Source of the DNA: a virus
Taxonomy: Duplodnaviria > Heunggongvirae > Uroviricota > Caudoviricetes
Length of the DNA: 64,000 nucleotides
Virus record (IMG/VR): IMGVR_UViG_3300021963_008171
Span: 10,995-74,994 of that record
Reading direction: 5' to 3' (one strand)
The translations under genes and the position numbers were made by a program. Each line of letters opens with the position of its first letter. Position 1 is the first letter of the stretch. The notes under the pieces were generated by a model that had not been told where the DNA came from, searched no databases, and worked only from the letters and a program-made list of their open reading frames with translations. Of the stretch, positions 1-62,806 are shown piece after piece.

Positions 1-146
1 CAAAGATATACGATAGACTTCCTGTTCATATAAAAAATAGAGTAATCAAGGAAATATCAGAGAGAAAGAAGGATCCAGAGGCATTTGAAAGATCTGTTCA
101 GAATGTTTCGGATCTAATGCAATCTGGCATATTTGATGATATATAA
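1..146 (+). CDS. 3' end of an ORF that starts upstream of the window; function unknown
   Basis: Frame 3 is open from the window edge to TAA 144-146 (...DLMQSGIFDDI*). It is co-oriented with the downstream genes. Confidence 0.4.
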   Translation, partial: KIYDRLPVHIKNRVIKEISERKKDPEAFERSVQNVSDLMQSGIFDDI

Positions 147-148
147 AT
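138..148 (+). promoter_or_regulatory. GATATATAAAT motif (candidate phage-specific promoter core)
   Basis: Exact 11-mer 2 nt before ATG 151. The same or near-identical motif recurs before many genes and before two RNA genes. Confidence 0.4.
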
Positions 149-150
149 CA

Positions 151-777
151 ATGAAATATCTAAAGAATTTTAAATCCTTATTTGAAAGTGATGATCCTGG
201 ACATTCCGCCAGGGATATCTTTGATATCTGGGAGGTCTACAAGGTACGAGGACCCGGAATAGGCCACACCAGCGAAGAATACTTGAAAAAAATAGATTGG
301 GAGATGGGAGATCATCTAGACACTCCCGACCATCATGTTAAGGTGTATTCAGCAGATGGGTTTCATGAAGACGGCACGGAATTTCAAGCAGAGTATATGG
401 TAATAGATGACAACATTACAGAACTGGATTTGGATAATTTAGAAATTGTTAATTCCGAACGTTTCGAGCAAACGATCTATGATAAAATAGAATCTGATGG
501 ACATATTGTTAAACGCGCAAAAAACTTCAACACGTTAGAGACCTCTGCAGAATGGGACGATATTATTGGGATGTTTAAAAAAGCTTCTGATAATGGATCA
601 AGAACAGATGGAAAAATAACCATCGATGATAAAGAATACGAAACGGACCTAATTCTGTCTTGGGGTATTGTTAAATTGAAAGACGATAAAAAGGAATATT
701 GGTGGAACCCTAATACGAAAATATTATACATTAAATCCAAGCAGGGAGAGGAAATTTGGGCAATCTACAATCGTTGA
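151..777 (+). CDS. hypothetical protein with the recurrent N-terminal motif (MKYLKNFKSLFE)
   Basis: ATG 151 is in frame with track ORF 133..777 and lies directly after the motif. 208 codons. Confidence 0.6.
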   Translation: MKYLKNFKSLFESDDPGHSARDIFDIWEVYKVRGPGIGHTSEEYLKKIDWEMGDHLDTPDHHVKVYSADGFHEDGTEFQAEYMVIDDNITELDLDNLEIVNSERFEQTIYDKIESDGHIVKRAKNFNTLETSAEWDDIIGMFKKASDNGSRTDGKITIDDKEYETDLILSWGIVKLKDDKKEYWWNPNTKILYIKSKQGEEIWAIYNR

Positions 778-965
778 TTCTCTATCAAATTACTTATCTC
801 TAACATCTTGGATTCATCCATAACAATTTCCTCGTTATCGTCAAAGGCATCTATCGAAAAATGTCCTGAATAAAAATCCTCGGTTAACATAACGGTGTAT
901 GAATTGCCATCATCAGTGGTAACATTATAGGTTAGATCTGTTTGCATTAATAATACTGTTGCCAT
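765..965 (-). CDS. small acidic hypothetical protein
   Basis: 66-codon ATG ORF immediately downstream of the minus-strand terminator 973-1002. A 13-nt convergent overlap with 151..777 lowers confidence. Confidence 0.35.
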   Translation of the reverse strand: MATVLLMQTDLTYNVTTDDGNSYTVMLTEDFYSGHFSIDAFDDNEEIVMDESKMLEISNLIENQRL

Positions 966-972
966 AGTTCAT

Positions 973-1002
973 AAAAAAAGCGACTGGATATCCAATCGCT
1001 TT
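973..1002 (-). terminator. rho-independent terminator (minus strand)
   Basis: AAAGCGA (977-983) pairs with TCGCTTT (996-1002). Read on the minus strand, the stem is followed by a run of T (A973-A979 on plus). It sits right after the stop of 1025..1312. Confidence 0.65.
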
Positions 1003-1024
1003 ATTTCATTTTAGTAGATTTCCA

Positions 1025-1312
1025 CTACTTTTTAGCTTTTTTAGCTTTAGTTGTTTCAGCCTTCGCCGGTGCCTTTTTAGCAGCTGGTTTTTTTGCTGGT
1101 GCTTTTTTGGTAGCTGGTTTTTTAGCAGCCGGTTTTACCTTTTCGATAACAGCTGGTGCTGCTTCTACTGATACAACGGGTTCTTCTGCCTTTACCTCTA
1201 CAACAGGATCAGCTTTAACTGGCTCAGCCTCTTGGTTTTTTGGTTTTTTGCTAATCTTTGTGTAAGCAAAATAAGCTCCCAAAACTAAAATCGCTAGAAA
1301 TAATACTTGCAT
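1025..1312 (-). CDS. membrane-anchored Lys/Ala/Pro-rich protein (histone-H1/AlgP-like KKPAAKKAPAKK repeats)
   Basis: N-terminal hydrophobic helix MQVLFLAILVLGAYFAY. The C-terminal tail reads AAKKPATKKAPAKKPAAKKAPAKAETTKAKKAKK. Confidence 0.65.
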   Translation of the reverse strand: MQVLFLAILVLGAYFAYTKISKKPKNQEAEPVKADPVVEVKAEEPVVSVEAAPAVIEKVKPAAKKPATKKAPAKKPAAKKAPAKAETTKAKKAKK

Positions 1313-1327
1313 ATTTTTGGTTATTTG

Positions 1328-1338
1328 ATTTATATATC
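1328..1338 (-). promoter_or_regulatory. GATATATAAAT motif on the minus strand
   Basis: Plus-strand ATTTATATATC is the reverse complement of GATATATAAAT, 15 nt upstream of the minus-strand ATG at 1312. Confidence 0.4.
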
Positions 1339-60725: not shown

Positions 60726-60737
60726 CAAATTTTATAT

Positions 60738-60812
60738 AGCGGGGTAGAGCAGTGGTAGCTCGTTGGGCTCATAACCCAAAGGTCGCAGGTTCGAATCCTG
60801 TCCCCGCAACCA
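60738..60812 (+). tRNA. initiator-type tRNA-Met (CAU) with encoded CCA
   Basis: The cloverleaf folds by hand: acceptor AGCGGGG/CCCCGCA with a 1:72 A-A mismatch, an A11:U24 pair, anticodon stem TTGGG/CCCAA carrying three G:C pairs next to loop CTCATAA, and T-arm GCAGG-TTCGAAT-CCTGT. 75 nt. Confidence 0.9.
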
Positions 60813-60823
60813 AATTTAAAATC

Positions 60824-61207
60824 ATGTCTACCAATTGTAATATCTGCAGCGAAAAATGTTTTGGAAAGGATGGATATGATGGAAGTTGCTGTACAATAGA
60901 AGCACGTGACTATATCATAGGTCCACATAAGGACGCTAAGCAATTCATTCAATCATTATCATTAAAGCTCGGAAGAGAGATCAGCTACGAGTCAATATTC
61001 ATTGATTACGAAGAAGGAAAAAGACTTTTTCCCGACAAATCCGCATGGCAAAGCCCAACTTCATATCCTGCATTCAGAGTTGATCTAAATAATCCAAGAA
61101 ACCCCTGCATCTTTTACAATACAGTAGTTAAATCATGTATGGTATATGATATCAGACCAGAAACATGCGAGACATATCAATGCGATTATCTTAAAAGTAA
61201 TCTCTGA
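60824..61207 (+). CDS. YkgJ-family (CxxCxxCC) Cys-cluster protein
   Basis: ATG 60824 is in frame with track ORF 60752, whose 5' part overlaps the tRNA. CNICSEKCFGKDGYDGSCC...CIFYN...CMVYDIRPETCETYQC. Confidence 0.6.
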   Translation: MSTNCNICSEKCFGKDGYDGSCCTIEARDYIIGPHKDAKQFIQSLSLKLGREISYESIFIDYEEGKRLFPDKSAWQSPTSYPAFRVDLNNPRNPCIFYNTVVKSCMVYDIRPETCETYQCDYLKSNL

Positions 61208-61214
61208 TATATAG
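61206..61214 (+). promoter_or_regulatory. GATATATAG motif variant
   Basis: Overlaps the stop of the previous gene. Lies 19 nt before ATG 61234. Confidence 0.3.
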
Positions 61215-61233
61215 ATGCAAAACACGTGCATCA

Positions 61234-62046
61234 ATGATTAAGAAGTATCTAGATTTTATTAATGAATCCATAAAATATCTTTCAACCCAAGAGTTTTTCA
61301 ATTGGCTAGAGGAAAGAAAGGACCATGTATTCATTGCTCTTGACACAGAAACTACTGGGCTAAAAGGTCCAAGGATAGATCAATTGACTCAAATTGCTGC
61401 TATTGCTTTTTCTTTTGATTATGATTCTCTATCATTCTTGGAAATTAGCAGATACAATAAGAAGATCTCTTTAACTCCAGAAATTAAAGCATTAAAACAA
61501 TTACCGGATTCTGAAATTCAGGGAGCACTTAAATATAACAGATACGGCGTAAGCGGAGGAAAATTCCAAGACGAGCAGGTAGTTATAAACGAATTGGTAG
61601 ATTTTGTTGCACAATTTGATAAAAGCATTTTATTAATTCAAAATTCACCATTTGATATGCCAATGATTAATGTCAGGGCTAAATTTCAAAGACTGAATTC
61701 AGAGGTATTTGATACAAAAGATTTCTTTGCATATTTCTTAATACCAACTCTTCAAAGATTAGCAGATACTGATCCAGAAGCCCAAAGTATATTGGATACT
61801 TTCGGTAAATCATCAAGTGGGAAGCTTTACACATCATCGCTTCCTAAGGTAGCTGCAGGACTTGGTGTTGACCCGAGTGGAGCGCATGATGCATTATACG
61901 ATTGCTCATATATGGTTGAAACCCTGGAAAAAGCGTTTCAAATAGTTAGAAATAATTCAGATTTTGACAGAAAAGATTTAATCAGACAAAGAATACTAAC
62001 AGATCGCTATATGAAAGCGAAGAATAAGGCAGAAGGAAGACTATGA
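61234..62046 (+). CDS. DEDD-family (DnaQ-like) 3'-5' exonuclease
   Basis: ExoI VFIALDTETTGL, ExoII LLIQNSPFDMPMI and ExoIII GAHDALYDCSYM. The N-terminus is MIKKYLDFINESI. Confidence 0.85.
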   Translation: MIKKYLDFINESIKYLSTQEFFNWLEERKDHVFIALDTETTGLKGPRIDQLTQIAAIAFSFDYDSLSFLEISRYNKKISLTPEIKALKQLPDSEIQGALKYNRYGVSGGKFQDEQVVINELVDFVAQFDKSILLIQNSPFDMPMINVRAKFQRLNSEVFDTKDFFAYFLIPTLQRLADTDPEAQSILDTFGKSSSGKLYTSSLPKVAAGLGVDPSGAHDALYDCSYMVETLEKAFQIVRNNSDFDRKDLIRQRILTDRYMKAKNKAEGRL

Positions 62047-62735
62047 TAAAGAACTTTTCATCATACATTAATGAGCAGTATTCCAATCCAAAAGATGTGG
62101 TTAATCTGAAATATGGCACCCCTCAGATGGATCACAAAGAAAAAATGGATCAAGGATCATCCCTATATTCCTCCGTGAAAGACACAGATCTTTGGAAAAA
62201 GTGGACTTCCACCTTTCCTCCGGCGCAGAGTTCAGAAGATGCTATAAAATCCCTAGAAGAATTAATTCTAATTGGATCTTCACAAACCCCAGAGGATAAA
62301 GAATTTGTTAAAGATGCTGAACATGATATGAAAGGCATTTTCGTTAAATTTTTAAAACTCAACGGAGTAGATAATATAACTGTAGAAGATCTTAAAGAGA
62401 TATCCAAAGAATTAGATCCTATAACATTTCATCTGAAATACATTTTTAATTATCCAAGACCTCACCAATTAGCAGGCGAATTGGAAATCCCGTTATACCC
62501 TTCTCAAACAACAGATGCATGCAGTCCTGCATATCCGTCGGGTCATTCTATAGATTCATTCGTTATGGGAGGATTAATAGGTAAAAAAATACCTCAACTC
62601 CGAAACGATGTTCTAAAACTGTCTGAAAAAATTTCCAGATCTAGACTTCAAGGAGGTATACATTTTTCTTTCGATCAGGAGTTTGGGAGACAAATTGCAG
62701 AGGATATTTTAAACCTTGATTTTTTGTCTCTCTAG
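62043..62735 (+). CDS. PAP2-superfamily phosphatase
   Basis: NYPRPHQ (the RP of motif 1), YPSGHS, and SRSRLQGGIHFSFD (SRx5Hx3D). The N-terminus is MIKNFSSYINEQ. Confidence 0.75.
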   Translation: MIKNFSSYINEQYSNPKDVVNLKYGTPQMDHKEKMDQGSSLYSSVKDTDLWKKWTSTFPPAQSSEDAIKSLEELILIGSSQTPEDKEFVKDAEHDMKGIFVKFLKLNGVDNITVEDLKEISKELDPITFHLKYIFNYPRPHQLAGELEIPLYPSQTTDACSPAYPSGHSIDSFVMGGLIGKKIPQLRNDVLKLSEKISRSRLQGGIHFSFDQEFGRQIAEDILNLDFLSL

Positions 62736-62794
62736 AGCCATTTTTTCCCTTTCTAAAATAAAATCACCTTCTTTCCTGTTTAATCATATTTCTT

Positions 62795-62806
62795 GAATAT
62801 ATAAAT
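62795..62806 (+). promoter_or_regulatory. GAATATATAAAT motif
   Basis: 32 nt upstream of ATG 62839 of the collagen-like gene. Confidence 0.4.

Follow-up and report, generated by a model that had tools for sequence, protein, structure and literature searches.

An AT-rich motif immediately upstream of gene starts is a probable promoter element in a clade of large uncultured phages

We analyzed a stretch of 64,000 nt (hereafter, the window) of the IMG/VR virus record IMGVR_UViG_3300021963_008171 (Caudoviricetes; positions 10,995 to 74,994) and characterized a short AT-rich motif, RATATATARA, which recurs upstream of its genes. The motif is enriched in intergenic DNA, oriented like the gene that follows it, conserved across related phages, held at preferred distances from the start codon and set in the same register as the -7 box of host-type promoters. 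From these properties we infer a role as a promoter, the position at which transcripts would start and the kind of factor that would read the motif. A promoter of some kind is the best-supported reading and a likely one, when a clade-specific promoter and a promoter read by the host alone are taken together. The narrower reading that we favor, probable but held with less assurance, is that this clade of large phages has a promoter class of its own, with RATATATARA as the core and, it appears, the sole element recognized.

The window is densely coding (6.35% intergenic), with a G+C content of 35% overall and 32% in its intergenic DNA. The form GATATATAAA occurs eight times against 0.63 expected, a count reached in none of 100 shuffles, and the consensus RATATATARA occurs 14 times against 3.25 expected. 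The core ATATATAR is present in 19 copies, 18 of which lie just upstream of a gene or an RNA gene on the same strand; the other copy (GATATATAGA, 39131-39140, minus strand) is intragenic with no gene start nearby and is probably a chance occurrence outside the system. In an intergenic test set of 5,088 nt, for which every region was lengthened by 8 nt, we counted 17 copies of the core where 500 dinucleotide shuffles gave 2.5 on average and 10 at most, and seven copies of GATATATAAA for 0.11 expected. The 58.7 kb of coding interior contain a single ATATATAR, and an unbiased k-mer scan returned ATATATAA as the top intergenic-enriched 8-mer. A preliminary description of this DNA, which proposed the motif as a phage promoter, had raised the objection that its frequency might merely follow AT-rich composition; the intergenic excess stands when this is computed. 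The coordinates in that description were all correct, both for GATATATAAA (138, 1329-1338 on the minus strand, 3680, 11676, 28500, 29442, 30800 and 42934) and for the variants (CATATATAAAC at 26360; others at 2533, 3011/3012, 29184, 60279/60280, 61206 and 62795/62796), and the sites at 2093, 22734 and 41611-41618 (minus strand) had been overlooked.

Alignment of the 18 window sites refined the consensus to RATATATARA, with a purine at position -1, a purine at core position 8 and A at +9. The fourth nucleotide 3' of the core is A in 13 of the 18 sites, which fits a preferred purine start. No column is conserved between -45 and -2 in these aligned sites, and nothing resembling a -33 or -35 element was found there. 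The signal is a compact, asymmetric 10-mer without a -35/-33 partner. A 13-mer corresponding to the motif minus one TA, CCGAATATAAAAT, is found in identical copies at 11824-11836 (plus strand), 9 nt 5' of ATG 11844, and at 57077-57089 (minus strand), in the divergent region from which the minus-strand operon 57011-48976 departs; this shortened form may act as a weaker version of the signal. The palindrome TAAATTTA is also intergenic-enriched, yet its placement is inconsistent and we rejected it.

For 113 unique sites from the window and the clade, we measured how far the core lies from the next ATG. This spacing is 3 nt at 23 sites and 4 nt at nine; 0-2 nt does not occur and 5-9 nt is rare. 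A second class shows an A-rich spacer of 12-21 nt, and a third consists of long leaders or RNA genes. The dominance of 3-4 nt, with shorter distances absent, matches the geometry expected of leaderless transcripts, in which the box is fixed such that +1 is the A of AUG, and it fits well the earlier suggestion that leaderless mRNAs might be made from these sites. In the window, distances of 3 or 4 nt were found on the plus strand at GATATATAAA 138-147 (ATG 151, 4 nt past the 8-mer core; conserved in the relatives L002, L003 and L093), AATATATAAG 2092-2101 (ATG 2104, 3 nt; orthologue in L093 at 11943), AATATATAGA 2533-2542 (ATG 2545, 3 nt; orthologue in L002), AATATATAAG 22733-22742 (ATG 22746, 4 nt; orthologues in L081 at 6161 and L085 at 5511), GATATATAAA 28500-28509 (ATG 28512, 3 nt), AATATATAGA 29184-29193 (ATG 29196, 3 nt) and GATATATAAA 42934-42943 (ATG 42946, 3 nt, opening an 831-aa ORF). 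Larger distances were found on the plus strand at GATATATAAA 29442-29451 (ATG 29463, 12 nt) and 30800-30809 (ATG 30824, 15 nt), both with A-rich leaders, at AATATATAGA 3012-3021 (15 nt before a 42-aa Lys/Arg-rich ORF from 3036; conserved in L001-L003 and L093), at GATATATAGA 61206-61215 (ATG 61234, 19 nt; overlapping the TGA stop of the upstream ORF) and at AATATATAAA 62796-62805 (34 nt before ATG 62839 of a collagen-like Gly-X-Y ORF). On the minus strand, GATATATAAA 1329-1338 lies 17 nt from ATG 1312 and is conserved in L001-L003 and L093, and AATATATAAT 41610-41619 heads a minus-strand operon, 17 nt from ATG 41593 of a 38-aa ORF. Both minus-strand sites stand in divergent intergenic regions (1313-1419 and 41466-41694) where nothing but the motif is recognisable as a candidate promoter of the minus-strand genes; upstream of 1329-1338, its strand carries no host-type box. 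Downstream of the window's sites are one collagen-like fibre gene and two RNA genes, and most of the other genes have no annotation.

The claim that all sites are intergenic and on the strand of the downstream gene held for the strand and not for strict intergenic location. At 139, 2093, 22734 and 29185 the upstream ORF enters the motif, whose TAA or TAG serves as its stop codon: TAA for the ORF ending ..F-D-D-I at 138-147 and for ORFs 1420-2100 and 22436-22741, and TAG for ORF 28512-29192. Another claim was that two sites directly follow terminator hairpins. The hairpin at 28473-28494, 6 nt upstream of the 28500 site, is a clear terminator, whereas the one at 30781-30796 is weak and its hairpin form is not conserved in relatives, so that a single good case carries the argument. 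As a general feature an upstream terminator was rejected, being present at only seven of the 113 sites, mostly orthologues of a single site. Five ORFs of the window (from 151, 22746, 22988, 28512 and 29463) belong to a family of small proteins with the N-terminus MK(H/Y)L..F, further members of which are found in L002, L003 and L081-L094; several members start 3-4 nt past a motif and others 7-17 nt past one.

The motif is conserved among related phages. We found no cultured relative by megablast or tblastn against INPHARED, where the sole match was a lectin domain common to Flavobacterium phages. A look-up of exact proteins for the source contig gave no match. Viral contigs in IMG/VR, 35-434 kb long, include many relatives, among them IMGVR_UViG_3300032331_003609, 3300008108_000037 and 3300013004_000098, which come from lakes. 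The source is a large uncultured phage, probably with a genome of 130-250 kb or more, of which the window is only a part. In close relatives, whose full contigs measure 132-245 kb, the motif is found at orthologous intergenic positions. Downstream of the Ro60 gene, an alignment of six non-redundant genomes shows it as an invariant block at four junctions, while the spacers, A-rich leaders, hairpins and indels around it vary between genomes; at the 28500 site the downstream gene itself differs in some of them. Relatives at 63-65% amino-acid identity, including a contig of 434 kb, also present ATATATAR before genes. In contrast, distant relatives identified through a 481-aa protein (1.18 Mb in total, 30-34% G+C) served as a negative control and contain 185 copies, 92 of them intragenic and none 3-4 nt from an ATG. 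The placement of the motif is therefore a property of one clade and not of AT-rich phage DNA. Just past the stop of the orthologue of ORF 10224-11669, the distantly related loci L019, L022 and L032-L058 carry the recurrent word (A)TATTTATA(C/T)ACAT in place of the window's GATATATAAA, a hint that each clade may have its own signal. We searched the distant relatives for an equivalent motif, and the candidate TATTTATAYA has too few copies per locus to conclude.

Two sites precede long structured leaders rather than a start codon. The motif copies GATATATAAA at 3680-3689 and 11676-11685 (plus strand; the latter 6 nt past the stop of ORF 10224-11669) are followed by 3 and 4 variable nucleotides, respectively, and then by the common leader sequence GAAAAAATCCTCATTCCGT. 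The first leader extends from 3692 to 3829 (plus strand), its 5' GAAAAAAUCC pairing with GGAUUUUUUC at 3820-3829 upstream of ATG 3847; its fold has a z-score of -4.3, and the leader contains a host-type box, TATATTTG, at 3792-3799. The second extends from 11689 to 11808 (plus strand), with GAAAAAAUCCUC pairing with GAGUAUUUUUUC at 11797-11808 upstream of ATG 11844. In all eight copies examined, the first bases of the leader form an 11-bp helix with GAGGAUUUUUU, located about 110-130 nt downstream, while the interior has diverged. When the leader was searched alone in local loci, IMG/VR and metagenomes, every true copy had the motif 3-5 nt upstream with a lineage-specific spacer in between; the scans of IMG/VR and metagenomes yielded only orthologues of the two known leaders and chance matches. 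A conserved transcribed sequence is thus found at the same offset from the motif as the ATG of the 3-4-nt class, as a fixed transcription start would give. The leader has no match in Rfam and may be a cis-regulatory element; its 5' end, AAAAAAUCCUC, resembles an anti-Shine-Dalgarno sequence, and the partner GAGGAUUUUUU, just upstream of the ORF, resembles a Shine-Dalgarno sequence.

Two other sites precede RNA genes, as the preliminary description had stated. A transfer-messenger RNA (tmRNA) gene (60314-60728, plus strand; Rfam, 80 bits; tag ending in ..ADYALAA) follows the motif copy AATATATAAT at 60280-60289 (plus strand), which ends 25 nt upstream of the mature 5' end, and is itself followed after 9 nt by a tRNA-Met(CAT) gene (60738-60812, plus strand). 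The other is a structured non-coding RNA (ncRNA) of 424 nt at 26399-26822 (plus strand), so that its structural start is at 26399 and not at 26371 as first proposed; it ends in its own terminator directly upstream of the Ro60/TROVE gene (26845-28470, plus strand). This RNA is real, being supported by covariation: 28 of its 84 predicted pairs show compensatory changes, and its conservation extends to at least five relatives. A search of the 26.3-26.9 kb region against Rfam matched no family, and the RNA is probably a Y-RNA-like partner of Ro. Its motif copy, the variant CATATATAAA at 26360-26369 (plus strand), retains ATATATAA in L081-L085 and L092 and is lost in L089 and L090. Directly 5' of the structural ends of both RNAs stands the 14-mer TTCTTTWAAATATT (26385-26398 and 60300-60313, plus strand), which has no other exact copy in the window and may represent a shared precursor leader, a processing signal or an RNA-gene promoter element. 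The motif is located 11-23 nt upstream of this 14-mer, and because that distance varies the two are separate elements.

The sites before two non-coding RNAs and before two leaders of 120-140 nt bear out the earlier argument that the motif cannot be only a translation signal. Furthermore, 59 ATG-start genes that lack the motif are A-rich upstream and present neither a Shine-Dalgarno sequence nor a partial motif. The motif is not a general ribosome-binding signal.

The window also contains promoters of the host type, aCATTTTT-N19-TAnnTTTG, before several genes. TAnnTTTG boxes were found at 1389-1396, 15838-15845, 19248-19255 and 23659-23666, as well as at 26352-26359 (TAGATTTG, plus strand, with a -33-like CATTTTT about 19 nt upstream) and at 29882-29889 (TACATTTG, plus strand). 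These boxes, together with A-rich upstream regions devoid of Shine-Dalgarno sequences, are typical of Bacteroidota (cf. PMC6847099), which are probably the hosts. The Escherichia coli-type arrangement TTGACA-N17-TATAAT shows no enrichment (91 matches against 92 expected in 20 kb). The motif and the host-type promoters are both present and differ in sequence, as the preliminary description had noted.

The host-type boxes also allow the motif to be placed in register. Across the clade the smallest distance between such a box and an ATG is 4 nt, the leaderless limit exemplified by TACATTTGaaggATG at 29882, and the box at that position, 4 nt 5' of ATG 29894, calibrates the leaderless geometry. The -7 box of Flavobacterium johnsoniae reads T-12 A-11 .. 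T-8 T-7 T-6 G-5 and transcription starts 4-5 nt past it (PMC6847099). From these two observations, and provided that the 3-nt class is leaderless, the motif would occupy -12 to -3 and share the register of the host box (-12 to -5), reading R-12 A-11 T-10 A-9 T-8 A-7 T-6 A-5 R-4 A-3. Relative to the Bacteroidota sigma-A(Bfr) promoter (-33 TTTG/-7 TAnnTTTG; PMC6847099), of which the boxes at 1389, 15838, 19248, 23659, 26352 and 29882 are true examples, the motif shares A-11, T-8, T-6 and the absence of G at -10 and -9. In contrast, it has R, A and A where the host box has the near-invariant T-12, T-7 and G-5, it shows additional conservation at positions -4 and -3, and there is no upstream -33 TTTG or AT-rich tract where the true boxes of the window have aCATTTTT. 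Because three invariant positions are not matched, the motif is not a host sigma-A promoter. At 29882-29916 (plus strand), ATG 29894 is part of a conserved, terminator-like hairpin (29889-29909), and the T-run behind it doubles as coding sequence for the signal peptide. The hairpin may act as an attenuator, or as a terminator that also serves the upstream gene.

These observations suggest the following mechanism. The element would occupy the -10 or "-7" region, from about -12 to -3, without a -33/-35 partner, and transcripts would begin with a purine located 3-5 nt past ATATATAR. This purine would be the A of the ATG at about one third of the sites, giving a leaderless mRNA, and at about one quarter the A-rich spacer of 12-21 nt before the ATG would give a somewhat shorter A-rich leader. 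At the other sites the transcript would be a long structured leader or a tmRNA or Y-RNA-like precursor. The motif would be read by a specificity factor of modified or alternative type, encoded by the phage or taking the form of a redirected host RNA polymerase, and probably not by the housekeeping sigma alone, since A-11, T-8 and T-6 are kept while the invariant T-12, T-7 and G-5 are replaced. The division into host-type early and phage-factor-dependent promoters proposed in the preliminary description is likewise putative. It is conceivable, although we would not count on it, that the clade carries a specificity factor which redirects RNA polymerase to RATATATARA boxes in the -7 register, independently of a -33 element, and so runs a large regulon of mostly leaderless or very-short-leader mRNAs along with the phage's own tmRNA and Y-RNA-like genes.

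Several observations weigh against a clade-specific promoter. Pfam searches of the ORFs of the window, and PHROG searches of all except about 25 ORFs in a sugar-modification cluster, detected no gene for a sigma factor, a gp55-like protein or an RNA polymerase. A regular-expression search for the RNA polymerase motif DFDGD over about 1.5 Mb of fetched loci matched only Ca-binding-like repeats. The metagenome scan revealed no contig beginning or ending at the leader that would mark a start site. Only a minority of mRNAs lack a leader in F. johnsoniae, the single Bacteroidota species considered (PMC6847099). Several of the 3-nt sites are found inside tight operons, where they overlap a stop codon, and this arrangement would also suit coupling or an RNA-level signal. 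The sites are not all independent, five of them preceding paralogous MKHLxxF genes. Finally, the Y-RNA-like gene has a complete host-type promoter (CATTTTT..TAGATTTG) that adjoins the motif at 26360; the arrangement at 26352-26369 could represent two tandem promoters, or the motif could there be simply the initially transcribed sequence of the host-type promoter. The only transcription-related leads in the window are both weak. ORF 17529-17966 (plus strand) matches PHROG families annotated as Srd anti-sigma factor or decoy of host sigma70 and, in an overlapping match, HNH and endonuclease VII families, and we rejected the anti-sigma match as unreliable; ORF 18739-19230 (plus strand) presents a weak match to a D5-like helix-turn-helix (HTH) regulator.

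The closest competitor to a clade-specific reader is a promoter read by the host alone, through an alternative sigma or through the housekeeping sigma-A, to which the motif would be a weak -7-like box. The shared register, the common A-11, T-8, T-6 and non-G positions -10/-9, and the lack of a phage sigma or RNA polymerase gene in the window and the fetched loci are all consistent with it. We nevertheless consider it unlikely: the motif departs from three of the six near-invariant host positions and shows no conservation at the places of the -33 element and the upstream AT-rich tracts. In addition, related phages of similar composition lack the word at gene starts, which points to a clade-specific reader, although a different host could also explain this contrast.

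Somewhat less probable is that the motif acts in RNA, as a site where a phage or host endoribonuclease would cleave polycistronic transcripts shortly before start codons and RNA genes, or as an enhancer of translation or re-initiation at a fixed distance from the AUG. The tight spacing of 3-4 nt, the compact operons in which the motif overlaps the upstream stop, hosts without Shine-Dalgarno sequences and two RNA genes that require 5' processing anyway would all suit such a signal. A role in translation fails, however, at the tmRNA, the ncRNA and the long leaders, and most genes carry neither the motif nor a partial copy. Moreover, the two divergent intergenic regions offer no recognisable upstream promoter for a precursor, and one site follows a strong terminator (28473-28494).

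We regard as improbable, and more so than an RNA-level signal, that the motif is an operator, bound by a phage repressor or activator over start regions rather than by the polymerase. The motif is indeed short, highly conserved, clade-specific and partly palindromic (ATATAT), and HTH proteins are encoded nearby (e.g., 18739-19230). Its strict strand polarity and asymmetric flanks (R on the 5' side, RA on the 3' side) argue against an operator, most sites lack any other promoter-like element, and the fixed offset to conserved transcript starts better suits an element that defines the start. Lastly, a by-product of AT-rich intergenic composition or of a duplicated gene family with its upstream region, as the 32% G+C of intergenic DNA and the five sites before MKHLxxF genes might suggest, is effectively refuted by the intergenic-only shuffles, by the position of most sites before unrelated genes and RNAs, by the retention of the motif while its flanks diverge and by equally AT-rich relatives without such placement.

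A clade-specific promoter of this type can be compared with several known systems. T4 late promoters consist of a TATAAATA box read by gp55 together with gp33 and the gp45 clamp. They share with the motif a single short AT-rich box in the -10 region, the absence of a -35 element, a position before many phage genes and a dissimilarity to host promoters. However, (R)ATATATA(R)A matches TATAAATA at just six of eight positions in the best register and does not qualify as that box, and the start would here be closer to the box (3-5 nt). In the window, which covers part of the genome only, Pfam on every ORF and PHROGs on most of them detected no homologue of gp55, gp33 or gp45, and no T4-like core genes are recognisable. 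The jumbo phages phiKZ and AR9 use non-canonical RNA polymerases with short promoters close to the start site; they likewise are large phages with a short AT-rich motif near the start and no -35 element, but the fetched loci revealed no split beta/beta'-like gene (DFDGD) and the consensus differs. PeSL-type mobile promoter cassettes sit at gene-module boundaries in T4-type phages, and the 28500 site similarly marks a junction whose downstream gene has been swapped. The motif lacks their conserved stem-loop, and 10 bp are too short to act alone as a recombination substrate. Finally, organisms rich in leaderless mRNAs (Deinococcus, mycobacteria and haloarchaea) also show a sharp peak of a -10-like box a few nucleotides 5' of the start codon, with a minimum spacing and no Shine-Dalgarno sequence; here the box is specific to a phage clade, the host phylum is mostly leadered (PMC6847099) and about one third of the sites fall in the leaderless class. 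Promoter motifs are routinely found in phage genomes, and the novelty would lie in a class of phage promoters that is confined to one clade, consists of a -10 box alone and includes a large leaderless subclass. Text searches of the literature for the motif and for Flavobacterium phage promoters returned nothing relevant.

The window encodes Ro60/TROVE, tmRNA, tRNA-Met, thioredoxin and a collagen-like fibre, and 25 kb of it form a cluster of genes for glycosyltransferases, radical-SAM proteins and sugar modification. This cluster for sugar and glycan modification (32745-57011, both strands) is large and unusual in a phage. It comprises GT7-type galactosyltransferase domains with laminin-G, at least three radical-SAM/SPASM proteins, epimerase/dehydratases, sulfotransferase-like proteins, an APS-kinase-like protein, GDSL lipases and 2OG-Fe(II) oxygenases. 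The collagen-like Gly-X-Y ORF (62839-64000, plus strand; local G+C content of 41%) runs past the end of the window and probably encodes a fibre protein.

The points of note are the register shared with the Bacteroidota -7 box, the leaderless design that the spacing suggests and the clean contrast between clades. On the practical side, the motif improves start-codon calls, for instance ATG 151 instead of TTG 133 and ATG 3847 instead of TTG 3838. If RATATATARA is indeed a clade-specific promoter, its sites would provide a map of operons and regulons for widespread uncultured large phages of freshwater. They would also give a handle on the factor gene through its co-occurrence with the motif, the distant relatives lacking the placement and presumably the factor. 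These phages would then have built promoters in the -7 geometry of Bacteroidota that yet escape the host sigma, and would rely on extensive leaderless expression in a phylum whose translation initiation is already atypical.

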